64,000 nucleotides of DNA from Gemmatimonadota bacterium (GTDB taxonomy: Bacteria; Gemmatimonadota; Gemmatimonadetes; Palauibacterales; Palauibacteraceae). This document shows positions 5,898 to 39,480 of this stretch, piece after piece. The stretch covers positions 2,495,319 through 2,559,318 of the forward strand of contig OY762926.1 in the NCBI GenBank assembly GCA_963666735.1. The letters are read 5' to 3'. A model generated the notes under the pieces. The model saw nothing but the letters and a program-made list of their open reading frames with translations, made no database searches and was not told where the DNA came from. The stretch's first letter is position 1; every line of letters starts with the position of its first letter. A program made the translations under genes and the position numbers.

Positions 5898-7025
5898 TCA
5901 GCCCGCGGCGGCGAGGGCCCGGTCCAGATCTTCCTTCAGGTCCTCGGCGTGCTCGAGGCCGACGGACATCCGGAGCAGGTTCTCCGGCGCACGGGTCGCC
6001 GCCCCCTCGATCGAGGCCCGGTGCTCGATGAGGGAGTGGGTGCCCCCGAGACTCGTCGCGCGGGCGATGATCTTCACCGCGGCGGCGACCGCGAAGGCCT
6101 CCTCCCGACCACCCGTCACATCGAACGACAGCATGCCGCCGAAGCCGGACATCTGACGCGCCGCGAGGCCGTGTCCCGGATCGTCCTCCAGACCCGGGTA
6201 GTGGACCCGCTCGACGCGCGGGTGGGCGTCGAGGAAGCGGGCAAGTTCCATGGCGTTGGCGCAGTGCATGGCCATGCGCGCGGCGAGGGATTCGAGTCCC
6301 CGTCTCGTGAGCCAGGCGTCGAAGGGCGACGGTACCAGGCCGCCATCCTTCTGGATCCCCCGCAGCGCTTCAAGCGTCTCGCCCCGCTCGCGCGCGATCA
6401 CCGCACCCCCGGTCACGTCGCTGTGGCCGCCGAAGTACTTGGTCGTGGAGTGCATGACGAGGTCCACCCCGAGCTCCAGCGGCCGCTGCAGAAGCGGCGT
6501 CGCCCACGTGTTGTCGCAGCACGAGATCGCCCGGCCCTCACGCGCGATGCCGGCGATCGCCTCGACGTCGGAGATGCGGATGAGCGGGTTCGACGGCGTC
6601 TCCATCCATACGAGGCGGGTGTTCGGCCTCATGGCGACCCGTACGGCGTCGAGGTCGGTCATATCGACGAAGCTCGCCTCGATCCCGCGCCGCGCGAACT
6701 GCTCCCGCAGGAGTACGCCGGTCCCGAAGTACGCGTCGTCCGCGGCGACGACGTGGTCCCCCGGCGCAAGGGAGAAGATGACGGAAAACGTCGCCGCCAT
6801 CCCGGAGGGGAAAGCGATGGCTTCCGGCCCGCCCTCCAGCGCGGCCAGCGCCGCCTCCAGCGCGGCCCGGTTCGGGTTCCCGCTGCGGGAGTAGTCGAAC
6901 CCCCCGGGGTACGACCCGTCCGCGCCGCGCTCGAAGGTGGTCGAGAGCGTGATCGGGGGCGCGATCGCCCGGCTCGTCCCGTCCGGATCCAAGCCCGTCT
7001 TCACCGCCAGCGTTTCAATTCGCAT
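5898..7025 (-). CDS. PLP-dependent Cys/Met metabolism enzyme (cystathionine gamma-synthase / beta-lyase family)
   Basis: HSTTKYFGGHSD lysine motif region, SGNPNR..., typical length 375 aa. Confidence 0.8.
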   Translation of the reverse strand: MRIETLAVKTGLDPDGTSRAIAPPITLSTTFERGADGSYPGGFDYSRSGNPNRAALEAALAALEGGPEAIAFPSGMAATFSVIFSLAPGDHVVAADDAYFGTGVLLREQFARRGIEASFVDMTDLDAVRVAMRPNTRLVWMETPSNPLIRISDVEAIAGIAREGRAISCCDNTWATPLLQRPLELGVDLVMHSTTKYFGGHSDVTGGAVIARERGETLEALRGIQKDGGLVPSPFDAWLTRRGLESLAARMAMHCANAMELARFLDAHPRVERVHYPGLEDDPGHGLAARQMSGFGGMLSFDVTGGREEAFAVAAAVKIIARATSLGGTHSLIEHRASIEGAATRAPENLLRMSVGLEHAEDLKEDLDRALAAAG

Positions 7026-9801: not shown

Positions 9802-11717
9802 CGTGTCCCCTCCACAACGGGCAGGACGATGTGCGATGCCCGGTCGCCGGCGTGGTGGATCATGTTCTCCGCGACCTCCCATTCCGTCTCGTCATAGTTG
9901 TTGCCGCCCGTGTTCAGGTTGCGGTCGAAGCGGGGGAAGTTGGAACTCGAGACCTCGACCCGCACGCGGTGGCCGGGTGCGAACCAGTGCGCCACCGAAT
10001 GGAGGTCCACCCGGACCGGATAGACTTCGCCTTCCTCCATCATCGCGGGCGCCTCGTATCCGTCGCGGTAGCGCGCCCTCATGATGCCCTCGACGATGTT
10101 GATCGCCCGTCCATCGGGATGGACGTCGAGGAGCTTCACGGTGAAGTCGGTGTCTGCGGCGCTCGAACTCACGTAGAGCCGGGCCTCGAGCGGGCCCGCG
10201 ATCTCGAGGCCGTCGCCGGCGACCGGATCGCCGGTGTAGACGAGGACGTCCTCGCGTTCCTCGATGTCCGACTGGTCGAACGCCCCCGGCTGGTCGTCGG
10301 GGTTCCCGGTGCAGCAGACGGATCCGCCGCGGGAGGGGACGGGATCCCCCGGATCATAGACGAACCGGTCGGGAGGTTCGTCCGCGGGCGCTTCGGCGGA
10401 GAGGGCGCCGTCGCCGAGTCTCGTGTTCGCGTTCCCTCCGCTGCGAAGGTAGAGCCGGGTGGTCTCGACCCCGGGGGGCGGCCACGTTTCGGCGGCCGCC
10501 CACTCGTTCCGGCCCATCACGTAGTAGTGAACCTTCGGGATGTCGGTGATGCCGTTGTCCACGCCCTTCAGCCAGTAGTCGAACCAGGCGAGATAGAGCG
10601 AACGGTACGGCAGGCGGGCGTCGCCGAAGTCGACGTCCCCGACCACCGTGTGTTCCGTGGCGCGCTCGGACATGCAGTGGCTGGTGGGAGAGAGGATGAC
10701 GTACTGGTGCGCGCCGCCCCGGTCGCTCACCGCGTTGTCCCGCATCATCCGCCACTGCTGAAGCGTCTCGTTGGCGCCGAGGTCGTACCACGAGTTCACG
10801 TGGAGCGCCGGCGTGTCGAAGCGGTCGGCGTCGCTCAGGTATCCGAGTCCGTCCCACCATTCGTCGGCGAGCGGCGTGCTCAGGACCTCTTCCCAGTCCG
10901 TGTCGCGGTCGGGGGGGCCGTATTTTCGCATGAGGTCGATGGTGGGAAGCTCGCGGAGCGCGGCGAACATCTCGACCGGGGGCGGAGGCTCGCCTCCCGG
11001 GCGCTTCCGTCCGTTGCCGCGGAACCAGCCGAAGCTCGCGGAGAGCCCGAACGCGCCCCCCTCGAAGATGCCGAAGTAGCCGTACCGTCCGCCGGCCGAT
11101 CCGACCGACCCGCCGGCGGCCAGGGGGATGGCGGCGGCGTGCGCCGGGTGGCGCTGCGTCATGAGTTGCGTCTGGTTTTCTCCCAGGTAGGAACAGCCGA
11201 GGGTCCCCACCTTCCCGTTCGACCAGGGCCGGGTCGAAGCCCACTCGACGGCGTCGTAGCCGTCCTCCCGGTCCGCCGCGGAGAGGAGATAGTCCCCTTC
11301 CGACGCATGCTTGCCGCGCACGTCCTGGACGACGACGGCGTACCCCTGCCCCGCGAAGAACCGCGCCGGGGAGATCGCGCCGGCCCGATAGGTCGCCTTG
11401 TCGTACGGCAGCCGGATCATGACGACGGGAAGGCGGTCACCGCGGCCGGCGGGGTCGGCCGGCAGGTAGAGGTCCGTCGCGAGGCGAACCCCGTCCCGCA
11501 TGGGGACCATGAGGTCCGTTTCGACCCGCACCTCGAACTGCGCTTCCGGCATCGCATGGGGATCGGCCGGATCCGGCGCGAATCGATCAAGGGCGGAGGC
11601 GGCGTCCGGTCCGCTTCCGCCATCGGCGAGCCGGGCCGGGGGCGCGTCTCCAGCGCCGGCACAGGCGGTGAGCGCGGCCGCCAGGGCGATGACGATTCCC
11701 GGCCGAGATTTGTCCAT
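9798..11717 (-). CDS. CocE/NonD family hydrolase (S15 X-Pro dipeptidyl-peptidase-like), lipoprotein
   Basis: MVPMRDGVRLATDLYLP..., GCSYLG nucleophile elbow, C-terminal beta-sandwich; signal MDKSRPGIVIALAAALTACAG; start reassigned to ATG 11717. Confidence 0.75.
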   Translation of the reverse strand: MDKSRPGIVIALAAALTACAGAGDAPPARLADGGSGPDAASALDRFAPDPADPHAMPEAQFEVRVETDLMVPMRDGVRLATDLYLPADPAGRGDRLPVVMIRLPYDKATYRAGAISPARFFAGQGYAVVVQDVRGKHASEGDYLLSAADREDGYDAVEWASTRPWSNGKVGTLGCSYLGENQTQLMTQRHPAHAAAIPLAAGGSVGSAGGRYGYFGIFEGGAFGLSASFGWFRGNGRKRPGGEPPPPVEMFAALRELPTIDLMRKYGPPDRDTDWEEVLSTPLADEWWDGLGYLSDADRFDTPALHVNSWYDLGANETLQQWRMMRDNAVSDRGGAHQYVILSPTSHCMSERATEHTVVGDVDFGDARLPYRSLYLAWFDYWLKGVDNGITDIPKVHYYVMGRNEWAAAETWPPPGVETTRLYLRSGGNANTRLGDGALSAEAPADEPPDRFVYDPGDPVPSRGGSVCCTGNPDDQPGAFDQSDIEEREDVLVYTGDPVAGDGLEIAGPLEARLYVSSSAADTDFTVKLLDVHPDGRAINIVEGIMRARYRDGYEAPAMMEEGEVYPVRVDLHSVAHWFAPGHRVRVEVSSSNFPRFDRNLNTGGNNYDETEWEVAENMIHHAGDRASHIVLPVVEGTR

Positions 11718-12141: not shown

Positions 12142-12483
12142 ATGGCTTCGGACCTCCACGAGCGCATCTGCAACGTCGTCGCCCGGATCCCGGCCGGTCG
12201 CGTCGCCACCTACGGACAGGTCGCCCAACTCGCCGGACTCGGCGGACAGGCCCGTCTTGTAGGTTACGCGCTCTACGCCTCGGACCGGCCGCTTCCGTGG
12301 CACCGCGTGATCAACGCGCGCGGCGAGATCAGCCCCCGCGGCGACTCCTACTCCGAGATGATCCAGTACCAGTTGCTGGCGAACGAAGGGGTGGAGTTCG
12401 ACAAGTGGGGACGCATCTCGCTCAAGCGCTTCCGCTGGAACGGGGAGATGCCGCCTCCCGCCAGCCCCTCGCCTCCCTCCTGA
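12142..12483 (+). CDS. MGMT-family DNA-binding protein (alkyltransferase-like / methylated-DNA-protein-cysteine methyltransferase DNA-binding domain)
   Basis: VARIPAGRVATYGQVAQLAG...WHRVINARG motif pattern. Confidence 0.6.
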   Translation: MASDLHERICNVVARIPAGRVATYGQVAQLAGLGGQARLVGYALYASDRPLPWHRVINARGEISPRGDSYSEMIQYQLLANEGVEFDKWGRISLKRFRWNGEMPPPASPSPPS

Positions 12484-12497
12484 CTCCGGAGCGTCGC

Positions 12498-14108
12498 ATG
12501 CGTCGTGACTTCCGCACCCGTACAGCAGCCCGTACAGGCCGTCCGCTGGCCGGCCTCCTCCTCGTCGCGCTGGCCGGCGGCGGCTTCGAAGCGCCGCTGG
12601 GCGCGCAGGACACCCGCGTCGAGACCGCCGCGGGGAACGTCGAGGGCGTCATGGTCGACGGCATCCGCTCCTACCGGGGGATTCCGTTCGCGGCGCCTCC
12701 CGTGGGGGACAGGCGCTGGAGGCCGCCGCAGCCGGTCGAAGCGTGGGGGCAGCGAACCCTGCGCGCGCACAGCTTCGGCCCGGAGTGCATGCAGGCCCCC
12801 TACGGCGCGGGCTCCTTCTTCGGAGGTCCCCCCGCCCCGACGGCGGAGGACTGCCTGTACCTGAACGTGTGGACCGGCGCCGCCGACGCCGCCGAGCGAC
12901 GGCCGGTCATGGTCTGGATCCACGGAGGCGCGCTCACGCGGGGGTCGGGCTCCACCGGCATCTACGACGGAACGGCACTGGCGGCGAAGGGCGCCGTCGC
13001 GGTCACGATCAACTACCGGCTCGGACCGTTCGGATACCTCGCGCATCCGCTCCTCTCGGCCGAGTCAGAACACGGATCTTCCGGCAACTACGGCGTTCTC
13101 GACCAGGTCGCCGCGCTGGAGTGGGTGCGCGACAACATCGCGGCCTTCGGCGGGGACCCGGACCGCGTGACGATTTTCGGCGAGTCGGCCGGGTCGTGGA
13201 GCGTGAACACGCTGATGGCGACGCCGCTGGCGGCGGGACTCTTCCACCGCGCCATCGGACAGAGCGGGGGGCGGTTCGGCCCCATGATGCGTCTCTCGGA
13301 GGCGCCGGAGGGCGGACGCTCGGCCGAAGAGACCGGGGCCGCGTTTCTCGGGGCGCTCGGGGCGGAGACCCCGGAGGATATGCGGAAGCTCTCGGCCGCA
13401 ACCGTGATGGCGGGGCTCGCCACGCCGGCCGGGCGCGGCTTCAGGACGGCGGAGAACGTGGACGGCTGGGTGTTGCCGACGGACGTGACGACGGCGTTCG
13501 CCGAGGGAACGCACAACAACGTTCCGGTGCTCGTCGGGTTCAACGCGGATGAGATGACCTCGCTCTCGTCGCCGAGAGCCGTGCCGGAGACGCTCGACGC
13601 GTGGCGCGAGTGGGTCGCCGGGCGCGTGGGCGACGATGCGGCGAGCTTCGACGCCGCCTACCCGGTGGGGGAGGAGGGCGAAATCTTCGACGCCTTCATG
13701 CGAAGCCGCGGCGACGCGCTGTTCGGCATCCAGATGCGGACATGGGCGCGGGCGTCGGAAGCCGCCGGCGCGGATGCCTGGCTCTACTACTTCACGCACG
13801 AGCCGCCCGGACCCGCGAAGAACTATCTCAAGTCGTACCACGCGGCCGAGATCGTGTACGCGTTCGGCAACGTCGATCCCGGCGAACGGGAGGCCGCGGA
13901 CCGTCGGTTGGCGCGTACGATGGCCTCCTACTGGGTCAACTTCGCCGCGAACGGCGACCCGAACGGTCCCGGACTGCCGCCGTGGCCGGCCTACACGCGC
14001 GACTCCGAGGCGCATCTCGTACTCGGGCCGACGGTCGAGGCGGGAAGCAGCCTGCGCGCGGTCCAACTGGACTTCTGGGATCGCCGACTCCGGGCCGGCA
14101 CGCCGTGA
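12498..14108 (+). CDS. Carboxylesterase type B (para-nitrobenzyl esterase-like), secreted
   Basis: IFGESAGSWS active-site serine motif, EDCLYLNVW, HGGAL; signal peptide; start at ATG 12498. Confidence 0.8.
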   Translation: MRRDFRTRTAARTGRPLAGLLLVALAGGGFEAPLGAQDTRVETAAGNVEGVMVDGIRSYRGIPFAAPPVGDRRWRPPQPVEAWGQRTLRAHSFGPECMQAPYGAGSFFGGPPAPTAEDCLYLNVWTGAADAAERRPVMVWIHGGALTRGSGSTGIYDGTALAAKGAVAVTINYRLGPFGYLAHPLLSAESEHGSSGNYGVLDQVAALEWVRDNIAAFGGDPDRVTIFGESAGSWSVNTLMATPLAAGLFHRAIGQSGGRFGPMMRLSEAPEGGRSAEETGAAFLGALGAETPEDMRKLSAATVMAGLATPAGRGFRTAENVDGWVLPTDVTTAFAEGTHNNVPVLVGFNADEMTSLSSPRAVPETLDAWREWVAGRVGDDAASFDAAYPVGEEGEIFDAFMRSRGDALFGIQMRTWARASEAAGADAWLYYFTHEPPGPAKNYLKSYHAAEIVYAFGNVDPGEREAADRRLARTMASYWVNFAANGDPNGPGLPPWPAYTRDSEAHLVLGPTVEAGSSLRAVQLDFWDRRLRAGTP

Positions 14109-14217
14109 AGGCGCCTCAGGCCGACGGGTCGTACCGATGACCGGACCGCTCTGCCGGCGGCTCGCCGCGATCCGCGCGGAGAAGGAAGGCGCGCGCCCGG
14201 CAGCCCTGACCGCGGTC

Positions 14218-14796
14218 ATGAGCGACGGCACGGAGGCACTGCGGAGTTCCGGCATCCTCGACGGGATTCCCGGGGTGGGCGACCGGGCGCCCTTGTTCGC
14301 ACGGCCGAGCGTGGCCGGCCCCACGGTCCGGTTGAAGACGCTCCTCAAGCGCGGATCCGTCGTGCTGAGCTTCTTCCGCGGCCGCTGGTGACCGTACTGC
14401 CGCGAAGGGCAGGTTGCTCTTCAGTCGGTTCTTCCAGAGATCGAGGCGAAAGGCGCCCGCCTCGTTACGCTCTCTCCGCAACTCGCGGAGTTCGCGCGCG
14501 GCTGGATCGAGGAGGACGGCATCGGGTTCGACGTCCTGCTCGACCTCGGATTGGGCGTGGCTCGTGACTACGGCCTGACGTTCAGGGTCGAGGGCGAACT
14601 GCGCGCGCTCTACCACGACAAGCTCGGCATCGACCTCGCCCGCTTCAACGGCGACGAGTCGTGGGAACTTCCGCTCACGTCCACCTTCGTCATCGACCGG
14701 GACGGAACGATCGCGTACGCCTCCGCCGACCCCGACTACACGGTGCGCGCCGAACCGGACGAGGTCGTCGCCGCGATCCCAACGTTCGACTCGTAG
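14218..14796 (+). CDS. AhpC/TSA (Prx-like) thiol-disulfide oxidoreductase with in-frame TGA (14389..14391) at catalytic Cys of FFRGRW-[TGA]-PYC: selenoprotein candidate or nonsense pseudogene; alternative start 14137
   Basis: GDRAPLF...VVLSFFRGRW*PYCREGQ... continuing in same frame to ...TFVIDRDGTIAYA...RAEPDEVVAAI; classical Sec/Cys position. Confidence 0.5.
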
Positions 14797-14923: not shown

Positions 14924-15169
14924 GTGGCAAGCATCACAATTCGGAACCTGGGCGACGGAGTGAAGCGTCGGCTTCGGGTTAGAGCGGCGAAGAACGACCG
15001 TTCCATGGAGGAGGAAGCACGGGTGATTCTCCGGAAGGCGGTCGACCGGGAGGAGATGCCCGCGAAGGGCTTGGGAACGGCGATCCACGAGCTGTTCGCC
15101 CCTCTGGGTGGCGTGGAGCTTGAGATTCCTCCCCGCGAGCCGATGCGTGAACCGCCACGGTTCGACTGA
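14924..15169 (+). CDS. vapB: VapB/FitA-like ribbon-helix-helix antitoxin
   Basis: MASITIRNLGDGVKRRLRVRAAKNDRSMEEEARVIL. Confidence 0.7.
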   Translation: MASITIRNLGDGVKRRLRVRAAKNDRSMEEEARVILRKAVDREEMPAKGLGTAIHELFAPLGGVELEIPPREPMREPPRFD

Positions 15170-15178
15170 GTCACGCCG

Positions 15179-15601
15179 ATGTTCGTCCTCGACACGAATG
15201 TCGTCTCGGAGTTGATGCGCGGAGTCCCGCAGCCTGAAGTGCTTGCGTGGGTCGACGACCGTGCGAGGCGCGATTTGTTCGTCACCGCGATTACGGAAGC
15301 GGAAGTTCGAACCGGGATCGCCATTCTGCCGGCCGGCAGGCGCCGGCGGGACCTGGCGCATGTGGCGGATCGGTTCTTCGCGGACTTCTTCACAAACCGA
15401 GTGCTGCCGTTCGATGCTTCGGCGGCGAGAGCGTACGCGGTGATCACCGCCGGGCGACGGGCCGCGGGACGCCCGATCGGTCAACTCGACTGTCAGATCG
15501 CGGCCGTCACTCGTTGCCGAGGCGCAGCCCTGGCGACGCGAAACGTGAGGGATTTCGAGGGTACCGGGATCGATGTCCTGGATCCCTGGGCCGCAGTCTG
15601 A
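15179..15601 (+). CDS. vapC: VapC PIN-domain ribonuclease toxin
   Basis: MFVLDTNVVSEL... PIN acidic residues; 10 nt after antitoxin. Confidence 0.8.
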   Translation: MFVLDTNVVSELMRGVPQPEVLAWVDDRARRDLFVTAITEAEVRTGIAILPAGRRRRDLAHVADRFFADFFTNRVLPFDASAARAYAVITAGRRAAGRPIGQLDCQIAAVTRCRGAALATRNVRDFEGTGIDVLDPWAAV

Positions 15602-15659: not shown

Positions 15660-17330
15660 ATGCGTGACGGGGTGCGGCTCTCGGCGGATGTCTATCTGCC
15701 CGCTTCCGGAGGCCCTTTCCCCGCCATCCTGACGCGGACGCCTTACGAGAGCGGCCGGGACGTATTCGTCGAGAACGGCGTGTGGTGGGCGGAGCGCGGG
15801 TACGCGTTCGTGGTGCAGGACTGTCGCGGGCGGTCCGAGTCCGAGGGCGTATTCCACGCGTATCTCCCCGAGATCGAGGACGGGTACGACACCCTGGAGT
15901 GGCTGGCCGGGCAGGCGTGGTGCGACGGGAAGATCGGAATGTGGGGGCGCAGCTACGGCGGCCTCACGCAGTGGCTGAGCGCGCCGCTCGGGAGCCCGCA
16001 CCTCACCTGCATGGCGCCGCATGTGATCTGCGACGACCACTTCGGGGACTGTCACTACCTCGGCGGCGCCTTCCAACTGCTTCTGTCGCTCGGCGCGGCC
16101 GTGATCTGGGAGACGAACCTCGCGACCGTGACAGGCCCGCAGGCCGCGCGCCTGTTTCAGAACCCGAAGTTCTGGGCCCACCTGCCCATCATCGAGATGG
16201 ACGAGCGCGCGATCGGGCGGAAGATCCCGTACTGGAGGGAATGGCTGGAACACCCGACGCGGGACGAGTACTGGCGTCGGCTCCGGGTCACGGATCGCTA
16301 CGACCGCGTCACGGCGCCGGTGTTTCAGCAGGGCGGCTGGTACGACGCGTATTCGGGTTCGCTGCTTCGAATGCACGAGGGGATGTCGGGCGCCGCGACC
16401 CCGCGCGCCCGCACGCAGAGCCGGAGCCTGCTCGGACCCTGGTCGCACGAGATCCCGGAGACGAGGACGGTCGGGGACCTCGACTTCGGACCCGGCGCCT
16501 GGGTGGACGTGCGGAAGGAGGAGCGGCGCTGGTTCGACTGGCAGCTTCGCGGCATGGACGACGGGATCGGTGAAGACCCGCCGTTGCGCTGGTTCACGAC
16601 GGGTGCCAACCGGTGGCGGGGCGGCGCGGGGTGGCCGCCGCCGGGGACGGAGGAAGTGCCTTGGTATCTGCACAGCGACGGGCGCGCGAACCGGGACGAC
16701 GACGCGCGCCTCGATCCGGAGCCGCCGGGGGACGAACCCCCCGACCGCTTCGAGTACGATCCGCGCGATCCGGCGCCCTCGCTCGGGGGCAATCTCTCTT
16801 CCCGGCTGATCACGACCCACGCCGAGACGCCGATGCGGGGCGGTCCCGTCGAGCAGGCGCCGATCGAGCGGCGGCCCGACGTGCTTGTCTATACGTCGCC
16901 GGCTCTGGAGGACGATCTCGAGGTCACGGGGCCGGTCGAGGTGGTGCTTTACGCCGAGTCGTCGGGGCCGGACACGGACTTCGTGGCGCGGGTGACGGAT
17001 GTCGATCCGGCGGGGGGATCATTCGTGCTGACGGAGGGGATCCTGCGCGCACGGTATCGCGGCGGGTTGAGCCGGACCGAACTGCTCGAGCCCGGCGAGG
17101 CGGCGGAGCTCCGGATCCGGCTCTACCCGATGAGCCATGTGTTCCGGGCCGGCCACCGGATCCGGCTTCAGGTCACGAGCAGTTGCTTCCCCCGCTTCAG
17201 TCGCAATCTCAACACCGGCGAAGACGTGGGGACCGGCACCCGCATGCGGACGGCCCGCAACACGGTGCTGCACTCGACGGCCTGTCCCTCGCACGTCCTG
17301 CTGCCGGTCCGCGCGGGCTCATCCGGCTGA
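15660..17330 (+). CDS. CocE/NonD family hydrolase (second paralog); alternative start 15573
   Basis: MRDGVRLSADVYLP, GRSYGG, C-terminal galactose-binding-like domain. Confidence 0.75.
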   Translation: MRDGVRLSADVYLPASGGPFPAILTRTPYESGRDVFVENGVWWAERGYAFVVQDCRGRSESEGVFHAYLPEIEDGYDTLEWLAGQAWCDGKIGMWGRSYGGLTQWLSAPLGSPHLTCMAPHVICDDHFGDCHYLGGAFQLLLSLGAAVIWETNLATVTGPQAARLFQNPKFWAHLPIIEMDERAIGRKIPYWREWLEHPTRDEYWRRLRVTDRYDRVTAPVFQQGGWYDAYSGSLLRMHEGMSGAATPRARTQSRSLLGPWSHEIPETRTVGDLDFGPGAWVDVRKEERRWFDWQLRGMDDGIGEDPPLRWFTTGANRWRGGAGWPPPGTEEVPWYLHSDGRANRDDDARLDPEPPGDEPPDRFEYDPRDPAPSLGGNLSSRLITTHAETPMRGGPVEQAPIERRPDVLVYTSPALEDDLEVTGPVEVVLYAESSGPDTDFVARVTDVDPAGGSFVLTEGILRARYRGGLSRTELLEPGEAAELRIRLYPMSHVFRAGHRIRLQVTSSCFPRFSRNLNTGEDVGTGTRMRTARNTVLHSTACPSHVLLPVRAGSSG

Positions 17331-18347
17331 ACTCGCCAGGTGCCGCGGTTCGGTCGCCGGGAGCGTCTCCCTCAGAGCGACCTCGTAGGCGGGCGAGTGG
17401 AGCAGAAACGCATCGTGTCCGGCCTCCGAGCGCAGGAGGCGAAGTCCCGCCGGCGCCCCGGCCCGGCGCGCCGTCTCCGTTATCAGCCAGGACGGGACGA
17501 GGGTGTCCTCCTCCCACCCGATGAACCACGCGGGCACCGCAAGATCTTCCGGCCTCAACTCGCACAGGTCGATGGACGCGGACAGGGTCAGATAGGTCTC
17601 GGCATCGAACCGTTCCGCGAACTCATCGCCGCGTTTCCGCAGAAAACGGTCGATGGCGTGGACCGGCGTCCCGTCCTCCCACTCCCAGTCGAACGGGAAG
17701 CGGGCATCGAGTCCCTCGGTCGACTTGTAGGTGGTGAACGCCAACGCCCGCGCCAGCGCCACACCCTCGCGACTCCGCCCCTGCCGGATCGCGAACTCCA
17801 CGACTCGTCGCTGCACGGAGCGCACGCCGGTCGCCTGCGCGTGGCCGCGGTGCGCGGCGCCGATCAGGACGACGCCGTCCGCGCGGGCGGGTCGGCGGCA
17901 ACCGAGAGCCAGCGCGACCATGCCGCCGTACGACGCGCCCAGGACACGGTGCACCCGCCGCGCGCCAAGGTGATCTAGCAGGGCGACGACGGCATTCGCC
18001 TGGTCGCCGGGAGTCACGTGCAACCGTCCCGGGGGTTCGACGGTGCCCGGCGACCCGAGGAAGTCGAACCCCAGCACCTGCCACCGGCCGGTGTCGATGG
18101 CCAGGCCCGGGCCCACGAGTTTTCGCCACCAGCCCGGCGAAGGGTCCAGTGCGTTGGCGCAGACGTGGCGGTTGGCGGAGATCCCGCCCGCGACGACGAG
18201 GAGAGGGGCATCCTCGGCGCCGGCGATCTCGTATCGCACCCGGAAACGCGCGTCGACGGCAGTGTCCAGTTCCGGTCTCCACGTAGCCGGCATCGGGACG
18301 CTGCCCCGTCGCCCCACCGGCAGCCCTTCTGGTAGCACGGCGTTCAA
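17319..18347 (-). CDS. metX: Homoserine O-acetyltransferase (alpha/beta hydrolase); likely true start ATG at 18293 (track start is TTG)
   Basis: GWW..LVGPGLAIDTGRW...NFLGSPGT and GASYGGMVALALG match MetX signatures. Confidence 0.7.
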   Translation of the reverse strand: MNAVLPEGLPVGRRGSVPMPATWRPELDTAVDARFRVRYEIAGAEDAPLLVVAGGISANRHVCANALDPSPGWWRKLVGPGLAIDTGRWQVLGFDFLGSPGTVEPPGRLHVTPGDQANAVVALLDHLGARRVHRVLGASYGGMVALALGCRRPARADGVVLIGAAHRGHAQATGVRSVQRRVVEFAIRQGRSREGVALARALAFTTYKSTEGLDARFPFDWEWEDGTPVHAIDRFLRKRGDEFAERFDAETYLTLSASIDLCELRPEDLAVPAWFIGWEEDTLVPSWLITETARRAGAPAGLRLLRSEAGHDAFLLHSPAYEVALRETLPATEPRHLASSAG

Positions 18348-18424: not shown

Positions 18425-18549
18425 ACGCTCATCTCTCGGATCCCCGTTCGAGGGTCCGCAGGAGTTGGCACCGCTGGGCGTGCATGTGGGCATGCATGCC
18501 CCGGTTGCCCCGGCTTCAAAGGGCCCGTCCCTCAGCCGGTCTCGATGAG
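18425..18549 (-). ncRNA. SAM-I (S-box) riboswitch aptamer in 5' leader of metX
   Basis: Minus-strand reading CUCAUCGAGACCGGCUGAGGGACGGGCCCUUUGAAGCCGGGGCAACC...GGUGCCAACUCCUGCGGAC...GAGAUGAG matches S-box consensus incl. P1 pairing. Confidence 0.7.
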
Positions 18550-18683
18550 TAGCTGCCGAAGCTCGCGGCTCCGGCAACGGGCGTCAAGAAATGCTCGGCG
18601 CGCGCCGCCCCGGCCCCCGGCACGCGCCTCTCCGGCGAATAGTTGACGGGGGGCCCACGACCCGGTACCCTCTGCCCGCTAAC

Positions 18684-18800
18684 GCTCATCGAGACCGGTC
18701 GAGGGACAGGCCCGAAGACACCGGGGCAACCTGTGGAAGGTGGCTCTTCCACTGATGTGCCAACTCCTGCGACGGATGCAATCCGTTGGTAGATGAGTCG
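18684..18800 (+). ncRNA. SAM-I (S-box) riboswitch aptamer in 5' leader of aspartokinase-like/metY operon
   Basis: CUCAUCGAGACCGGUCGAGGGACAGGCCCGAAGACACCGGGGCAACC...GGUGCCAACUCCUGCGACGG...GAUGAG; P1 closes CUCAUC/GAUGAG. Confidence 0.75.
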
Positions 18801-18810
18801 CCCGCTGCGC

Positions 18811-18852
18811 TTCGTTGCGCGGCCGCTGTTTGTTCCCAGGGCGTCGCTTCTC
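18811..18852 (+). terminator. Candidate riboswitch expression-platform terminator hairpin (GCTGCGC-ttcgtt-GCGCGGC followed by tgtttgtt)
   Basis: 7-bp stem with one GU plus U-rich tract directly after aptamer. Confidence 0.3.
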
Positions 18853-18897
18853 CGGAGTCCGCTGAGTGTGCACCGAGACTCGGGGGGAGGCGTTTCA

Positions 18898-19671
18898 TTG
18901 CGCGAAGTTCACCGCGTTCACGTACTCAAGTTCGGTTCATCCGTGCTGGCGCGTCCGGCCGCATACCGGTCGGTGGCCGAGGAGATCCGGACCGAAGTCG
19001 CCGGGGGCGCGAAAGTCGTCGCGGTCGTGTCGGCGATGGGTGACACCACCGACGACCTGCTCGCCGCGGCGCGCGAACTCGCTCCGTCACTCCCCGACCA
19101 TCTCATGGGATCTCTCCTGGCGACGGGCGAAGAGGCGTCCGTCGCGCTTCTCCGTCTCGCGCTCGCGACGGCGCGCGTCCGTGCCCTCGACATGTCGTTC
19201 TGGCGCCTGCCGCTCCGCACCCGGGGCCCGCTCGGCGCCGCCGATCCCGTCGACGTGGACGTCCACCGGATCGAAACGGCCCTCGCGGCCCACGATGCGG
19301 TCGTTCTTCCCGGGTTCGTGGGCGTCGACGCGACGGGCGTCACGTCGCTGCTCGGCAGGGGGGGATCGGACCTCACGGCGATCTTCCTCGGGCATGCCCT
19401 GGGCGCCGCCGCGATCCGTCTCGTGAAGGATGTGGACGGCATCTTTCCGGCCGACCCGAAACGGTTCCCGGACATCGCGCCGCTGCGCAGGGCGACATGG
19501 AGCGAGGCGCGGCGGACGGCCGGCGGCGTCGTTCAGGATCGGGCCCTGCGTTTCGCCCAGCGCCACCGCATCCCGTTTCGCGTGGCGGCGCCCGGCGGCA
19601 CGGGCACGTGGGTCGGCCGGCACGATTCGACGAACACCGAATTCCGTCTCGCGGGCTGCGCGCGCGGCTGA
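18898..19671 (+). CDS. Amino-acid kinase family protein, aspartokinase-like but short (no ACT domains); start reassigned to TTG 18898 with GGGAGG SD
   Basis: VLKFGSSVLARP...VVAVVSAMGDTTDDLL N-terminal AAK motifs; track start 18793 lies inside riboswitch P1. Confidence 0.55.
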   Translation: MREVHRVHVLKFGSSVLARPAAYRSVAEEIRTEVAGGAKVVAVVSAMGDTTDDLLAAARELAPSLPDHLMGSLLATGEEASVALLRLALATARVRALDMSFWRLPLRTRGPLGAADPVDVDVHRIETALAAHDAVVLPGFVGVDATGVTSLLGRGGSDLTAIFLGHALGAAAIRLVKDVDGIFPADPKRFPDIAPLRRATWSEARRTAGGVVQDRALRFAQRHRIPFRVAAPGGTGTWVGRHDSTNTEFRLAGCARG

Positions 19672-19788: not shown

Positions 19789-21084
19789 ATGAGAGACGAA
19801 ACTGTAGCGATCCACCTCGGATACGATTCCGAGCCCACGACGCACGCCGTCGCGGTGCCGCTGTACCAGACCGTGGCGTACGAGTTCGACGACGCGCAGC
19901 ACGGCGCGGACCTCTTCAACCTCGAGGTCGAGGGCAACATCTACTCCCGCATCATGAACCCCACGCAGGCCGTGCTGGAGGAGCGGCTTGCCCAGCTCGA
20001 ACGCGGCCTGGCGACGCTTGCGCTCTCCTCGGGCAGCGCGGCCGTCAACTATTCGATCCTCAACCTCGCCGCCTCCGGGGACAACATCGTCTCGGTGCCC
20101 CAGTTGTACGGCGGCACGTACACGCTCTTCGCCCACATGCTGCCGCAGCTGGGCATCGAAGTGCGCTTCGCCGACGGCGACGGCGCGGACGATCTGGCTA
20201 AGCTGATCGATGACCGGACGAAGGCCGTGTTCGTCGAAAGCATCGGGAACCCGGCGGGTAATATCGTGGACCTCGCGGCGGTGGCCGACGCGGCGCACGC
20301 CCACGGCGTCGCCACCATCGTGGACAACACGGTCGCCAGCCCGGCGCTCCTCAAGCCGATCGAACACGGGTTCGACATCGTGGTGCACTCGCTGACGAAG
20401 TACATCGGCGGGCACGGCAACTCGCTCGGCGGCGCGATCGTCGATTCCGGGAAATTCCCGTGGACGGAGCACGCGAGCCGCTACCCGCAGTTCACGACGC
20501 CGGAACCCAGCTACCACGGAGTCGTCTACACGGAGGCGCTGGGGCCGGCCGCGTACATCGGGCGGGCGCGCACGGTGCCGCTGCGCAACACGGGGTCGGC
20601 GATCTCGCCCTTCAACGCGTTCCAGATCATCCAGGGGATCCAGACGCTGAACCTCCGCGTCGAGCGCCACTCCGAGAACGCGCTCGCGGTGGCGAAGCAC
20701 CTGAAGGACCACCCGGCCGTGGAGTGGGTGAGCTACGCCGGACTGCCGGGCGATCCGTACCACGACCTGGCCCTCAAGTACCTGGGCGGCCGGGCCTCGG
20801 GGATCCTGACGTTCGGGGTGAAGGGCGGCTTCGAGGCGGGCGTGAAGTTCTACGACGCGCTCGAGCTGTTCAAGCGGCTCGTGAACATCGGGGATGCCAA
20901 GTCGCTGGCGTGCCATCCGGCGTCCACGACGCACCGGCAGCTCACCGAGGAAGAGCAGCTCAGCGTCGGCGTGCGTCCGGAGACCATCCGGCTCTCCGTA
21001 GGCATCGAGCACATCGATGACATCATCGAGGACCTCGACCGCGCGCTGGACGGGGCGTCGTCCGCCCGGCCGGCCGCGGCGTAA
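19789..21084 (+). CDS. metY: O-acetylhomoserine sulfhydrylase / aminocarboxypropyltransferase
   Basis: 431 aa, HSLTKYIGGHGNSLGGAIVDSGKFPW, strong full-length match. Confidence 0.9.
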   Translation: MRDETVAIHLGYDSEPTTHAVAVPLYQTVAYEFDDAQHGADLFNLEVEGNIYSRIMNPTQAVLEERLAQLERGLATLALSSGSAAVNYSILNLAASGDNIVSVPQLYGGTYTLFAHMLPQLGIEVRFADGDGADDLAKLIDDRTKAVFVESIGNPAGNIVDLAAVADAAHAHGVATIVDNTVASPALLKPIEHGFDIVVHSLTKYIGGHGNSLGGAIVDSGKFPWTEHASRYPQFTTPEPSYHGVVYTEALGPAAYIGRARTVPLRNTGSAISPFNAFQIIQGIQTLNLRVERHSENALAVAKHLKDHPAVEWVSYAGLPGDPYHDLALKYLGGRASGILTFGVKGGFEAGVKFYDALELFKRLVNIGDAKSLACHPASTTHRQLTEEEQLSVGVRPETIRLSVGIEHIDDIIEDLDRALDGASSARPAAA

Positions 21085-23131: not shown

Positions 23132-23425
23132 ATGAATCAACGCGCAGCAGACCGCGACCACCTGGCGTACTGGCGCCGCAACCTCCGTTACCTGGGGGGC
23201 CTCCTCGCGATCTGGGCTCTGGTGTCCTTCGGCGCGGGCATCCTGTTCGCCGGCGCGCTCGACACGGTCAGGATCCCGGGCACGGGCTTCCCCCTCGGGT
23301 TCTGGTTCGCGCAGCAGGGCTCCATCTACGTCTTCGTCGTCCTCATCTTCGTCTACGTCTTCCTCATGAACCGGCTCGACCGGGAGTTCGACGTGGACGA
23401 GCGTGACGAGGAGGGCACGGCATGA
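23132..23425 (+). CDS. DUF4212 small membrane protein (putative solute:sodium symporter small subunit)
   Basis: 97 aa, two TM helices, ATGA-coupled to following SSF transporter as typical. Confidence 0.7.
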   Translation: MNQRAADRDHLAYWRRNLRYLGGLLAIWALVSFGAGILFAGALDTVRIPGTGFPLGFWFAQQGSIYVFVVLIFVYVFLMNRLDREFDVDERDEEGTA

Positions 23426-25143
23426 CGGTTCTCCAGTGGACGGCGACGCTCGTCGGGATTTCGTTCGCGCTCTACATCGGGATCGCGATCTGGTCGCGGG
23501 CCCATTCCACGAGCGAGTTCTACGTGGCCGGCAAGGGGGTCCATCCCCTGGCCAACGGGATGGCGACGGCGGCGGACTGGATGTCGGCCGCCTCCTTCAT
23601 CTCCATGGCCGGGATCATCTCCTTCCTGGGATACGACGGGTCGGTCTACCTGATGGGCTGGACCGGCGGATACGTGCTCCTGGCGCTGCTGCTCGCCCCG
23701 TATCTGCGGAAGTTCGGAGCCTTCACCGTCCCGGACTTCGTCGGCGACCGCTACTACTCGCAGACGGCCCGGGTCGTGGCCGTCATCTGCGCGATCTTCG
23801 TCTCCTTCACCTACGTGGCGGGCCAGATGCGCGGCGTGGGGATCGTGTTCAGCCGCTTCCTCGAGATCGATGTGATGTGGGGCGTGATCATCGGGATGGG
23901 GATCGTGTTCTTCTACGCGGTGCTCGGGGGGATGAAGGGGATCACCTACACGCAGGTCGCGCAGTACTGCGTGCTGATTTTCGCCTACACGGTGCCGGCG
24001 ATCTTCCTGTCGATGATGATCACGGGGATTCCGATTCCCCAGATCGGGTTCGGGGCGGCGGAGCAGGAGACCGGGACGTTCCTGCTCGACCGCCTGAACG
24101 GCCTGCACGAGGAACTGGGCTTCGCCGCCTACACGGCCGGGACGAAATCGACGCTCGACGTGCTGGCGATCACGGCCGCGCTCATGGTGGGGACGGCGGG
24201 GCTCCCGCACGTGATCATCCGCTTCTACACGGTGCCGCGGGTGCGCGACGCGCGGATCAGCGTGGGCTGGGCGCTCGTGTTCATCGCGCTCCTGTACACG
24301 GCGGCGCCGGCGGTGGCGGTGTTCGCGAGGACGAACCTGCTCAATACGGTGACGGACCAGCCGTACGCGGAGATGCCGGAGTGGTTCACGAAGTGGGAGG
24401 CGACGGGGTTGATCTCGTACGAGGACCACAACGCGGATGGGTTGATCCAGTACGTGGGGGCGGACGCGGTGGACGCCGCGGGCGCGCCCGTGCAGAACGA
24501 ACTCACGATTAACCGGGACATCATGGTGCTGGCGAACCCGGAGATCGCGCGCCTGCCGAACTGGGTGGTGGGACTGGTGGCGGCGGGCGGGCTGGCGGCG
24601 GCGCTCTCGACGGCGGCCGGACTCCTGCTCGTGCTCTCGGCGGCGATCAGCCACGACCTGCTCAAGCGCAACTGGCGACCGGACATCAGCGAGCGGGGCG
24701 AACTCATCGCAGCGCGGTTCAGCGCCGTGTTTGCCGTCCTCGCGGCGGGCTACCTGGGGATCAACCCGCCCGGCTTCGTGGCGGAGGTGGTCGCGTTCGC
24801 GTTCGGGCTCGCGGCGGCTTCGTTCTTCCCCGTCATCATCCTCGGCATCTTCTCGAAACGGCTCAACCGGGAGGGGGCGATCGCCGGCATGCTGTGCGGG
24901 ATCACGTTCACCGCCGCCTACATCGTCTACTTCAAGTTCGTGAACCCGGGCGCCAACGTGGCGGAGAACTGGTGGTTCGGGATCTCGCCGGAGGGGATCG
25001 GCGCGGTCGGCATGACGGTGAACTTCGTCGTCGCGACCGTCGTGTCGCGCTTCACGCCGCCGCCGCCGCCGGAGGCGCAGAGGCTGGTCGAGCGGATCCG
25101 GCTGCCGCGGGGGGCGGGCGAGGCGCACGAGATCAGCGGCTGA
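23422..25143 (+). CDS. Sodium:solute symporter, VC_2705/ActP-like subfamily
   Basis: 573 aa, strong SSF conservation (GKGVHPLANGMATAADWMSAASFISMAG...). Confidence 0.85.
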   Translation: MTVLQWTATLVGISFALYIGIAIWSRAHSTSEFYVAGKGVHPLANGMATAADWMSAASFISMAGIISFLGYDGSVYLMGWTGGYVLLALLLAPYLRKFGAFTVPDFVGDRYYSQTARVVAVICAIFVSFTYVAGQMRGVGIVFSRFLEIDVMWGVIIGMGIVFFYAVLGGMKGITYTQVAQYCVLIFAYTVPAIFLSMMITGIPIPQIGFGAAEQETGTFLLDRLNGLHEELGFAAYTAGTKSTLDVLAITAALMVGTAGLPHVIIRFYTVPRVRDARISVGWALVFIALLYTAAPAVAVFARTNLLNTVTDQPYAEMPEWFTKWEATGLISYEDHNADGLIQYVGADAVDAAGAPVQNELTINRDIMVLANPEIARLPNWVVGLVAAGGLAAALSTAAGLLLVLSAAISHDLLKRNWRPDISERGELIAARFSAVFAVLAAGYLGINPPGFVAEVVAFAFGLAAASFFPVIILGIFSKRLNREGAIAGMLCGITFTAAYIVYFKFVNPGANVAENWWFGISPEGIGAVGMTVNFVVATVVSRFTPPPPPEAQRLVERIRLPRGAGEAHEISG

Positions 25144-36964: not shown

Positions 36965-37213
36965 ATGCGAACCACAATTCGGCTGGACGATGACCTCATG
37001 CGAGCGGTGAAGCGTCATGCGCTCGAGTCGGGAACGACCGTCACGGCCGTCATCTCGCAGTCGCTACGGGAGCGACTTCAACGGCACAGGAACCGGACTT
37101 CGAACCCGCCCACGCCGCTTTCTCTCGTAACCGCGGGGGAGGGCGGCCTGCTGCCCGGCGTCGACCTCGATGATTCCGCAGCCCTCATCGAACTCATGGA
37201 AGACGGCGTTTGA
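36965..37213 (+). CDS. vapB: VapB-like RHH antitoxin
   Basis: MRTTIRLDDDLMRAVKRHALESGTTVTAVISQSLRERL. Confidence 0.6.
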   Translation: MRTTIRLDDDLMRAVKRHALESGTTVTAVISQSLRERLQRHRNRTSNPPTPLSLVTAGEGGLLPGVDLDDSAALIELMEDGV

Positions 37214-37668
37214 TCCTTCCCGACGTCAACATCCTCATCTACGCCCATCGCCGCGATGCTCCGGACCATCGGCAATATCTCGAATGGCTGATCGCCGAGG
37301 TCGACTCCGATGCGGCGTTCGGGCTGAGCCCGCTGGTTCTCAGCGGATTCATCCGCGTGGTCACGCACCCGAAGGTCTTCAAGAGTCCGAGTATGCTGTC
37401 CGAGGCGACCGCGTTCGCGGAGCAACTTCGTGAGCGGCCCAACTGCATCGAGGTGACACCCGGCTCCCGCCATTGGGCCATCTTCCTGCGGTTGTGCCAT
37501 CAGGCCGGGACGAGGGGCAACCTGGTGCCGGACGCGTATCTGGCGGCGATGGCGATCGAGAGCGGATGCGAGTGGGTGACGACCGACCGCGATTTCAGTC
37601 GATTCGAGGGGCTGAAGTGGCGCCATCCGCTCCCAAGTCCGTTGTCGGTCATTGTTGCGCCGAAATGA
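37210..37668 (+). CDS. vapC: VapC PIN-domain toxin (ATGA-coupled)
   Basis: MILPDVNILIYAHRRD... Confidence 0.75.
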   Translation: MILPDVNILIYAHRRDAPDHRQYLEWLIAEVDSDAAFGLSPLVLSGFIRVVTHPKVFKSPSMLSEATAFAEQLRERPNCIEVTPGSRHWAIFLRLCHQAGTRGNLVPDAYLAAMAIESGCEWVTTDRDFSRFEGLKWRHPLPSPLSVIVAPK

Positions 37669-37833
37669 CCGACAAACCAGCTTGTCCGCCATGGGTGACC
37701 GGCAAACCCACACAGAATGCGAGGAGGAAGTCGTGGTGGCACGGATTCGACCCGGCCCCGGCGCCGCGGCGCGCGGCGTCGTCCCGGCGGCGGAACGAGT
37801 CTCGCCTCCGGCGCTCCCGCAAGGAGTCGGCTG

Positions 37834-38961
37834 ATGCCTCCGGTCCGCTACCACGCGGGTGCGTTTCCGCCGACATCGGAGGAATTTGACTGGCACGCGC
37901 TTCTGCCCCACCTCGGACCTGCGGCGGCTGCCGTCGCCCGATACGATGGCGTGCTCCAAGGCATTCCGAACTCGGGCGTCCTGCTGTCGCCGTTGTCGAC
38001 GCAGGAGGCCGTTCTCTCTTCGCGTATCGAGGGCACGCAGGCCACGATGACCGAGGTTCTGGAGCTCGAGGCCGGGGCCGAAGCTGAATCGCCGGAGCGC
38101 CGCGAGGACATCCACGAGATTCTGAACTACCGCCGGGCCATGTACGAGGCGGCGCGGATGCTGGAGACGCTTCCAATTTCCGGCCGCGTGATCCGCGGCG
38201 CCCACGCGGTGCTTCTGGACAGCGTGCGCGGAGCCGGAAGGTCGCCGGGGGAGTATCGCCGGGCGTCCAACTGGATCGGTCCCCCGGGGTGCGGCATCGA
38301 GGAGGCCCGCTTCGTGCCGCCCGCCGCCCACGAGATCCCGGACGCCATGGGCCGGTGGGAACGGTACGCCAACGAGGGTGCGGACGGGGTGCCGGACCGC
38401 TTGGTGCAGCTGGCCGTCCTCCATGCCGAGTTCGAGGCGCTGCATCCGTTTCTGGACGGCAACGGCCGGGTGGGGCGCATGCTCGTCCCCCTTCTGCTCT
38501 GGCAATGGAGAATGATCGAGCGCCCGCATCTCTACATCAGCGGATTTCTGGAGGCGCACCGGAACGACTACTACGACGCCCTGCTCTCCGTGTCGCGCGG
38601 CCGCGACTGGACGACATGGACCCTCTTCTTCCTGAGGGCCGTGCGTGCCCAGGCGGAGGAGAACCTGGCCAAGGCGAAGGGGATTCTGCAGCTGTACGAC
38701 GACCTGAAGAACCGAGTCCCCAAGATGACCCGGTCGCAATACGCGACGCTGGCGGTGAACTGGATGTTCGGGCGACCGATCTTCTCAAGCACCGATTTCG
38801 TGAAGAAGTCGGGCATTCCCGAGTCCACGGCGCGTCGCTTTCTCACGGTGCTGCGAGAGAACGACGTGATTGGGGAGCTCCTCCCGCCCGCCGGGCGGAG
38901 GGCCGCGCTGTGGGTCTTCCCCAGTCTGCTCAATTTGGCAGAGGGGCGGAAGGCGTTCTGA
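37834..38961 (+). CDS. fic: Fic family protein (AMPylase/filamentation), with Fic_N and C-terminal winged helix
   Basis: HPFLDGNGRVGR core motif; AAGGAG SD 7 nt upstream. Confidence 0.8.
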   Translation: MPPVRYHAGAFPPTSEEFDWHALLPHLGPAAAAVARYDGVLQGIPNSGVLLSPLSTQEAVLSSRIEGTQATMTEVLELEAGAEAESPERREDIHEILNYRRAMYEAARMLETLPISGRVIRGAHAVLLDSVRGAGRSPGEYRRASNWIGPPGCGIEEARFVPPAAHEIPDAMGRWERYANEGADGVPDRLVQLAVLHAEFEALHPFLDGNGRVGRMLVPLLLWQWRMIERPHLYISGFLEAHRNDYYDALLSVSRGRDWTTWTLFFLRAVRAQAEENLAKAKGILQLYDDLKNRVPKMTRSQYATLAVNWMFGRPIFSSTDFVKKSGIPESTARRFLTVLRENDVIGELLPPAGRRAALWVFPSLLNLAEGRKAF

Positions 38962-39098: not shown

Positions 39099-39312
39099 TC
39101 ATCCGGGACCGGCATCGAGCAGGTCGAGGATGAAGGCGAACTCGAAGGCGAGTTCCTCGTACTCCCGGTCCCGGCCGGAGCCGCCGCCGTGGCCCGCGTC
39201 CATGTGCGTCTTGAGGAGCAGGCGGTTCTCGTCCGTCTTCGTCGCGCGCAGCTTCGCGACCTTCATCTTCCCGTCCTCGTACCACGCCCGGCCCAGTTCC
39301 TGTCCGCACCGG
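39099..39312 (-). pseudogene. Degenerate partial duplicate of oligopeptidase B 3' end (two non-contiguous pieces joined: ~96% identical to 40971..41116 and 41506..41551)
   Basis: Direct nucleotide comparison within window. Confidence 0.6.
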
Positions 39313-39324
39313 CCTCGGGCCGCC

Positions 39325-39480
39325 AACCCGCCCACGCCGCTTTCTCTCGTAACCACAGCGGAGGGCGGCCTGCTGCCCGGCGTCGACCTCGATGATTCCG
39401 CAGCCCTCATCGGATCCGTGGAAGACAGCGTTTTGATCCCTCCCGACGGCAACGTCTTGGTCTACGCCCCACCATCAAGA
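39325..39480 (+). pseudogene. Partial duplicate (~90% id) of vapB 3' end / vapC 5' start (cf. 37096..37252)
   Basis: Direct nucleotide comparison within window. Confidence 0.55.

Follow-up and report, generated by a model that had tools for sequence, protein, structure and literature searches.

This study concerns a gene interrupted by an in-frame TGA in a 64,000-nucleotide (nt) stretch of a Gemmatimonadota genome (assembly GCA_963666735.1, contig OY762926.1, positions 2,495,319 to 2,559,318), which is referred to at its full length as the window. The gene, at 14137-14796 on the + strand, is predicted with a probability of about 0.9 to encode a 219-residue oxidoreductase of cytoplasmic type with a thioredoxin (Trx) fold, 'peroxiredoxin-like' in family and with a Trx-type CxxC centre, in which selenocysteine (Sec) is inserted at residue 85 through UGA and a candidate bacterial Sec insertion sequence (bSECIS) follows. 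It is very probably a genuine Sec-encoding gene of a marine Gemmatimonadota bacterium. A preliminary description of this DNA had proposed that Sec replaces Cys here, and the proposal is supported by a TGA that is fixed in 30 orthologues, by a ratio of nonsynonymous to synonymous substitution rates (dN/dS) below 1 on both sides of it, and by a conserved stem-loop that fits the bSECIS consensus. We infer that Sec, rather than another residue, is inserted at the UGA. The features on which the analysis centred are as follows.

14137 to 14796, + strand: coding sequence of the predicted peroxiredoxin-like (Trx-fold, UxxC) selenoprotein, 219 codons including Sec85, defined by translation, PF00578, N-terminal conservation and dN/dS
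14389 to 14391, + strand: in-frame TGA, read as putative Sec (residue 85) from codon comparison across orthologues and homologues
14389 to 14400, + strand: predicted redox motif U-P-Y-C (Sec85 to Cys88), aligned with ResA 4nmu, with 3hdc and with the family
14404 to 14422, + strand: candidate bSECIS, with 5' arm GAAGGGCA at 14404-14411, loop GGU at 14412-14414 and 3' arm UGCUCUUC at 14415-14422
14397 to 14412, + strand: hairpin CUGCC-GCGAAG-GGCAG of the preliminary description, overlapping the conserved hairpin and competing for the same bases

Gene boundaries and conservation of the TGA

Translation of 14218-14796 (+) gave MSDGTEAL...FFRGRW*PYCREGQ...AAIPTFDS*, in which the TGA at 14389-14391 is the sole internal stop and a TAG at 14794-14796 closes the frame. 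The motif W-U-P-Y-C spans 14386-14400, with the TGC codon of Cys88 at 14398-14400. The reading frame with a single TGA was therefore as originally described, but its start at 14218 was not retained. An in-frame ATG at 14137, located 28 nt past the upstream stop at 14108, adds 27 residues (MTGPLCRRLAAIRAEKEGARPAALTAV) that are kept in all Palauibacter orthologues, with ATG or GTG at the matching start, and that can be aligned to the N-terminal helix (L..QL.A.RAE....P) found in the Cys homologues. Full-length Cys homologues have approximately 217-223 amino acids (aa), compared with 192 codons in the frame from 14218. Because the N-terminus is conserved and alignable with these full-length proteins, the gene start is assigned to ATG 14137, thereby giving 219 codons and Sec85, and the Met at 14218 is predicted to be internal.

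Homologues were sought in one genome per Genome Taxonomy Database (GTDB) species, and 79 loci (labelled L) were returned, the best of which (96% identity) belong to Candidatus Palauibacter, Gemmatimonadota. The codon aligned to the window TGA was TGA in 30 of 30 Gemmatimonadota orthologues, which share 59-96% identity, come from separate GTDB species and assemblies and carry the motif FFRGRW-TGA-PYCR. TGA was also present in five loci from other phyla, namely two of Terriglobia (L037, L046), two of Planctomycetota (L058, L068) and one unclassified metagenome-assembled genome (L072). Such a recurrence greatly exceeds what chance would produce. The aligned codon was TGC or TGT in 38 more distant homologous loci and AGC in three genuine peroxiredoxin (Prx)-type loci. 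Full-length Cys homologues are collinear with the window gene across the junction, and C85 is invariant in 41 family members; the TGA thus occupies a conserved position, the first Cys of WCPYC, as had been proposed. Two Terriglobia homologues carry Asp (GAT) at the Sec/Cys position (L066, position 9389; L076, position 10151) within a shifted W-D-P-F-C-C, which suggests that the active site of that branch is arranged differently.

Each of the 26 orthologues tested contained exactly one stop, the TGA, and no frameshift within an ungapped block of 209 codons. Pairwise dN/dS values were estimated by the Nei-Gojobori method for 19 Palauibacter sequences (171 pairs, mean dS approximately 0.5) and were 0.19 for the 83 codons upstream of the TGA and 0.125 for the 125 codons downstream. 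As both values are well below 1, the gene is translated and subject to purifying selection on either side of the TGA. A second paralogue in Pseudovibrio ascidiaceicola (L074, approximately 10020-10031) has a stop three codons before its CxxC (VFR*AWCPYC) and a truncated match; this copy is probably a true pseudogene, in contrast to the conserved TGA.

A conserved hairpin downstream of the TGA

The 55 nt downstream of the UGA were folded in 36 TGA-containing sequences by minimum free energy (MFE). A recurrent hairpin, GAAG(A/G)GCA-GG(U/C)-UGCUCUUC, with an 8-bp stem, a GGY loop and a fixed offset, was chosen in most of these sequences, and approximately ten more divergent ones folded otherwise. 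The stem base lies 12 nt past the UGA and the apical loop begins 20 nt past it. In an alignment of 31 sequences, 87.5% of cells were paired, compared with 35-59% when the 3' partners were slid by 1-3 columns. Compensatory changes occurred at three pairs (A-U to C-G in five sequences, A-U to U-A in three and A-U to C-G in one), the covariation score was reached in 0 of 500 column shuffles, and a 5-bp core of the hairpin was recovered independently by RNAalifold. Because the region is coding, the Cys forms served as the main control. At the same offset, the 35 TGA forms had a mean of 7.0 of 8 positions paired, versus 3.8 of 8 in the 38 Cys forms, and GG opened the loop in 33 of the 35 TGA forms.

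Codon usage and synonymous variation were also distinctive over this segment, and the synonymous sites provide separate evidence of constraint on the RNA itself. Codons +6 to +9 (GAG CAG GCT GCT) showed zero synonymous variation across 25 species. Mean synonymous diversity was 0.176 in the hairpin codons versus 0.381 in the rest of the gene, and the four lowest-diversity windows among 190 sliding windows all overlapped the hairpin. Three consecutive rare codons are found within the hairpin, GTT (5.2% of Val), GCT (4.7% of Ala) and CTT (6.3% of Leu), with a usage product of approximately 1.5e-4 in a genome of 67.6% GC.

The published bSECIS consensus comprises a loop of 3-9 nt, an upper stem of 4-16 bp, a UGA-to-loop distance of 16-37 nt, an MFE of -7.5 kcal/mol or lower, and a G at loop position 1 or 2, with G or U as the usual next base (PMC13188914). 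The hairpin at 14404-14422, with an MFE of -10.1 kcal/mol by itself, lies within all of these limits and is a well-supported bSECIS candidate on comparative grounds. It resembles the E. coli fdhF element in being a stem-loop within the open reading frame (ORF) directly 3' of the UGA, with a small loop starting with G and a spacing in the 16-37 nt range (PMC13188914). The two differ in that they share no sequence similarity, the window loop measures 3 nt (GGU/GGC), widening to 5 nt should its closing A-U pair open, and no bulged U was identified in the window hairpin, for which SelB binding is predicted. The spacer from the UGA to the base of the upper stem is 12 nt in the window. In the minimal E. 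coli element it is 11 nt.

Two other structures were considered and rejected. A lower-stem extension (GCCGC / G.CGGU), obtained in MFE folds of the window sequence and L001, was broken in L009, L011 and L015-L017. The hairpin at 14397-14412, which the preliminary description had pointed out while doubting that it was a canonical element, does exist in the window, but it does not behave as a conserved recoding element. Its pairing (76.8% of cells) equalled the shuffled expectation (76.0%), no covariation was found, and its fifth pair was present in 2 of 31 sequences and depended on a window-specific GGG codon; the other four pairs are accounted for solely by conservation of the codons TGC (Cys88) and CAG (Gln). 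With a loop that starts only 11 nt past the UGA, this hairpin falls outside the 16-37 nt consensus range (PMC13188914). The doubt was well placed, since the conserved candidate sits 7 nt further downstream and overlaps it.

Several observations weigh against the selenoprotein reading and its proposed element. The local free energy is unexceptional (z = -0.09 for 14380-14450), and the hairpin is therefore discriminated by conservation and not by stability. Among the Gemmatimonadota orthologues, those that diverge most (L021, L023, L025-L030) retain only 4-5 bp of the stem, and covariation is limited to three pairs and a few lineages. At the SECIS offset a hairpin of 7-8 bp is likewise seen in four Cys-form homologues, so the encoded peptide (E-E/L-Q-x-A-L-Q) may account for some of the pairing potential. 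The four hairpins, in two Pseudovibrio loci (L063, L069) and two Flavobacteriaceae loci (L044, L064), lie approximately 16-34 nt past the Cys codon and have TGA, AAG or GAA loops instead of GGY; they could be relics of a lost SECIS or by-products of the encoded peptide. A permissive Rfam search of 14330-14480 matched the hairpin to no model and gave a single chance match, to P5 small RNA (E=6.5). To our knowledge, no general bacterial SECIS model exists in Rfam, so the missing match is weak evidence. Neither the window nor approximately 1.2 Mb of related-locus flanks yielded a tRNA-Sec, selA, selB or selD, and no report of Sec use in Gemmatimonadota, Palauibacterales or Palauibacter was found in the literature searched.

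The machinery was sought in several ways. ARAGORN detected no tRNA-Sec in the 64-kb window and 35 loci; NCBIfam models identified no selA, selB or selD among the 20 largest window ORFs; and tblastn with approximate E. coli SelA/B/D queries returned just GTPase domains in unrelated Actinomycetes loci. A 91-nt 'tRNA-Glu(ctc)' was called by ARAGORN in L015 at 6907-6997 (+), where Rfam sees no tRNA and the sequence is coding-like; this call was set aside as a false positive and not a tRNA-Sec. The host would nevertheless be expected to decode Sec, because it is hard to see how purifying selection could have kept a UGA with its hairpin in 30 species that had no means of decoding it. A filter based on GC content at third codon positions for TGA-interrupted genes missed 14389 itself and gave off-frame artefacts. 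A motif-based scan yielded 185 candidates in the window, among which 14389 alone combined a redox motif with codon-position GC periodicity on both sides, and no second selenoprotein candidate was found there.

As neither Sec machinery in the sequence searched nor literature on Sec in Gemmatimonadota was found, there is some room for UGA being read without Sec, either by a near-cognate tRNA (Trp or Cys) helped by the hairpin or through reassignment of UGA in the lineage. Downstream RNA structures can stimulate read-through in general. This explanation is unlikely. TGA is the commonest ordinary stop in the window, ending 27 of 42 called genes, and UGA is therefore not reassigned. Recoding falls precisely on the redox Cys, as is characteristic of Sec but not of leaky termination; a Trp there would abolish the CxxC motif, and for Cys insertion a mutation to TGC would always be cheaper, yet TGA is retained in 30 species. 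The hairpin has SelB-type features, with GG opening a small loop 20 nt from the UGA (PMC13188914).

Database records raise the question of whether two products are made, one a short peptide from the N-terminal part that stops at the TGA and the other a separate C-terminal protein of approximately 118 aa. In a whole-database search, the closest protein matches (65-91% identity) had 106-134 aa and covered only the C-terminal 55-65% of the query, and full-length matches of approximately 220 aa were just 41-51% identical; the short entries have the look of gene calls cut off behind a stop. Public gene calls for the Gemmatimonadota orthologues (proteins P0001-P0011 and others; loci L001-L030) are all C-terminal fragments of 106-134 aa without the active site, including the NCBI-source entries P0004, P0005 and P0036, and none is annotated as a full-length selenoprotein. 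Databases hold many C-terminal calls with AhpC-TSA Pfam matches. The called starts vary between orthologues (MEAKGARL, MLPEIRAKG, MEQAALQES), so no internal start is conserved; moreover, the C-terminal piece would be without the redox motif and the fold's first beta-strands, and full-length Cys homologues run collinearly across the junction. Two separate products are accordingly very improbable.

A nonsense pseudogene or a TGC/TGT codon misread as TGA in a single genome, the alternative named in the preliminary description, would need one substitution and would agree with public callers treating the site as a stop, but it is excluded for practical purposes by a TGA common to 30 independent assemblies of different species and five other-phylum loci, for which a shared artefact across projects and technologies is implausible, by the intact 209-codon block and by purifying selection on both halves.

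Active site, fold and relation to known families

The selenoprotein reading was further examined at the level of the protein. With C placed at the TGA, the AhpC/TSA Prx-like domain named at the outset was confirmed by PF00578 (AhpC-TSA; E=1.4e-22, 80.4 bits against a cutoff of 26, profile positions 1-123 of 124), and PF08534 (Redoxin) matched with E=3.3e-16. W84, C85, P86 and C88 are invariant in the alignment of 41 family members. Sequence matches among solved structures were distant Trx-fold proteins, namely ResA 4nmu (E=2.8e-8), BCP 2cx3 and 3hdc. Sec85 aligns with the first, nucleophilic Cys of CxxC in ResA (WCxxC) and 3hdc (WCPYC). Against BCP 2cx3 of A. pernix the alignment reads ffPaafSPVC/ffRgrwUPYC, in which Sec85 corresponds to the Prx Ser/Thr, Cys88 to the peroxidatic Cys and Arg81 to the Prx Pro; the Prx-type loci L077-L079 show the same register. 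In this alignment the canonical Prx motif PxxxT/SxxC(U) was not found, the Prx Pro and Thr being replaced. The alignments therefore point to a Prx-like fold with a thioredoxin-type UxxC centre, in which Sec takes the nucleophilic first position and not the peroxidatic position of Prx.

The fold was read by proxy from the AlphaFold model of a Cys homologue, P0028, which equals the window protein in length and is 46% identical to the window protein in the A3 alignment and 49% identical by BLASTP. In the model (pLDDT 95.3), a Trx/Prx core comes after three N-terminal helices, and the motif Cys directly precedes helix 92-110. Its nearest Foldseek matches were BcpB 5epf (E=2.4e-14, TMt 0.86) and Bcp4 3hjp (TMt 0.89), with AhpE and ResA also retrieved. 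As far as this proxy model represents the window protein, a Prx/Trx fold is supported. No NCBIfam model reached its cutoff: the best, ResA NF002854, scored 29 bits against 170, the SelL-related NF040769 scored 27.6 bits against 120, and DsbE TIGR00385 scored 21 bits against 123.15. The window protein had no match to SelU/PRXL2 PF13911 (AhpC-TSA_2) at E<=0.01. One Cys homologue, P0027, has a precomputed PF13911 match, and a distant relationship to that family is possible.

A mechanism can be proposed from these features. During translation, a complex of SelB, GTP and Sec-tRNA(Sec) would bind the stem-loop at 14404-14422 and deliver Sec to the UGA in place of termination by release factor 2; the SelB step is proposed because the hairpin fits the bSECIS consensus. 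Sec85 would stand where CxxC proteins have their nucleophile, directly ahead of the N-terminal end of the first long Trx-fold helix. Its attack on a disulfide of the substrate, or on an oxidant (for instance a peroxide), would give a selenenylsulfide or selenenic-acid intermediate. Cys88 would resolve this intermediate by forming a Se-S bond within the molecule, and reduction of that bond by a cellular thiol would then regenerate the enzyme. The Sec85/Cys88 cycle is taken by analogy from the family.

The family, motif and recoding mechanism are all established, and the gene adds a member to a known family. A 'Prx-like thiol:disulfide oxidoreductase' (PF00578; UxxC/UxxU) is among the high-confidence predicted prokaryotic selenoproteins (PMC13188914), the 'Prx-like 1' family (pfam00578, UxxC) of the Global Ocean Sampling (GOS) survey comprised 225 Sec sequences and 2,740 Cys homologues (PMC2398784), and a 2016 survey counted this Prx-like selenoprotein family in 28 organisms (PMC5029168). 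The window protein shares with the Prx-like family of Kryukov and Gladyshev and with GOS Prx-like 1 the PF00578 domain, Sec at the first position of UxxC, Cys in many homologues, an in-ORF bSECIS directly 3' of the UGA and a prediction made from sequence. This comparison is one of domain and motif only, and a subfamily shared with WP_010940744.1 is not established. The Cys relatives of the window protein are named 'peroxiredoxin-like family protein' and have an N-terminal helical extension of approximately 45 residues and WCPYC. Palauibacterales and other Gemmatimonadota were not found as hosts in the selenoproteome papers searched.

Two other groups share parts of this architecture. The Prx selenoprotein (TxxU) and BCP/PrxQ have the same fold (nearest BcpB 5epf, Bcp4 3hjp and 2cx3) and Pfam family. 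Their catalytic residue is the last of PxxxT/SxxC, whereas here Sec is at the T/S position, Arg81 at the Pro position and Cys88 at the peroxidatic position; by this alignment the window protein is distinct from the TxxU Prx selenoprotein. ResA, TlpA and DsbE gave the best sequence matches among solved structures, and Sec85 aligns with their nucleophilic N-terminal Cys. These proteins are membrane-anchored, extracytoplasmic cytochrome-maturation factors of approximately 140-180 aa, in contrast to the window protein, whose N-terminal helical extension is soluble and whose genomic neighbourhood is not comparable.

Genomic context and evolutionary implications

The neighbourhood of the gene and the other features of the window are listed below.

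12297 to 14108, same strand as the selenoprotein gene: type-B carboxylesterase (PF00135), directly upstream
14924 to 15169 and 15179 to 15601, + strand: FitA-like ribbon-helix-helix antitoxin and PIN-domain toxin (VapBC-type), directly downstream
18426 to 18551, - strand, and 18683 to 18799, + strand: S-adenosylmethionine (SAM; S-box) riboswitches, divergent and back to back, 78.8 and 73.2 bits
37084 to 37211 and 39306 to 39433: 128-nt direct repeat, 88% identity, 2222 nt apart

Within the genus, the selenoprotein gene is syntenic, with the carboxylesterase upstream and a CocE/NonD hydrolase downstream. No conserved operon partner was found, as these genus-level neighbours are lost in more distant orthologues, and no functional partner can therefore be read from the context. 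The FitA-like/PIN pair sits between the selenoprotein gene and the hydrolase and was present, among 18 Palauibacter loci, only in the window, in L013 and partly in L004; by this distribution it appears to be a strain-variable insertion. Genes for a DUF4212 small protein and a VC_2705-family Na+/solute symporter are found in the window 9 kb downstream of the selenoprotein gene (23132-25143, +), and the same pair adjoins the selenoprotein gene in the distant Gemmatimonadota loci L020, L022 and L024 (approximately +1.5 kb). This arrangement may represent an ancestral neighbourhood, later split when met genes and hydrolases were inserted.

An Rfam search of the window at gathering thresholds returned the two SAM riboswitches only. 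One of them precedes a MetX-like homoserine O-acyltransferase (17319-18347, -), and the other precedes an aspartate-kinase-like ORF (18793-19671) and an O-acetylhomoserine sulfhydrylase (19789-21084). The 128-nt repeats flank a PIN-domain ORF (37210-37668), a Fic/DOC protein (37717-38961) and a C-terminal fragment of an S9 peptidase (39099-39452, -); the segment looks like an inserted cassette with duplicated ends.

In a rough neighbour-joining tree without support values, the Gemmatimonadota Sec forms made up one clade and the other Sec forms fell in three separate places among the Cys forms. Repeated Cys/Sec exchange has been described in bacterial redox selenoproteins (PMC1794560), and the scattered Sec forms fit such exchange. 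The Sec forms of Terriglobia and Planctomycetota carry very similar hairpins (GAGCWGG-N-WGCUC) at the same offset. We tentatively suggest, at rather less than even odds, that Palauibacterales and the neighbouring Gemmatimonadota orders constitute an unreported Sec-decoding lineage in which a distinct WUPYC Prx-like subfamily is a selenoprotein fixed across the clade. The proposed subfamily would be marked by WUPYC, by the N-terminal helical extension and by Cys relatives called 'peroxiredoxin-like family protein'. If this is true, the similar hairpins in other phyla would suggest that the gene and its SECIS have spread horizontally as a unit, or that Cys was repeatedly converted to Sec with a pre-existing hairpin as guide.

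The result adds a well-supported selenoprotein, and by implication a Sec-decoding trait, to a cosmopolitan, mostly uncultured lineage of marine and sponge-associated bacteria, for which the ecogenomic descriptions consulted make no mention of selenium (PMC10469786, PMC11596202). It also reveals a systematic annotation error, in that the public calls for at least 30 orthologues are fragments without the active site, so that functional profiling of these genomes overlooks the enzyme. Together, the 35 TGA and 38 Cys forms provide a natural data set on the balance between bSECIS and coding constraint and on Sec/Cys interconversion. The finding would not surprise specialists in the field, and it is useful for the annotation and the biology of an uncultured marine lineage.

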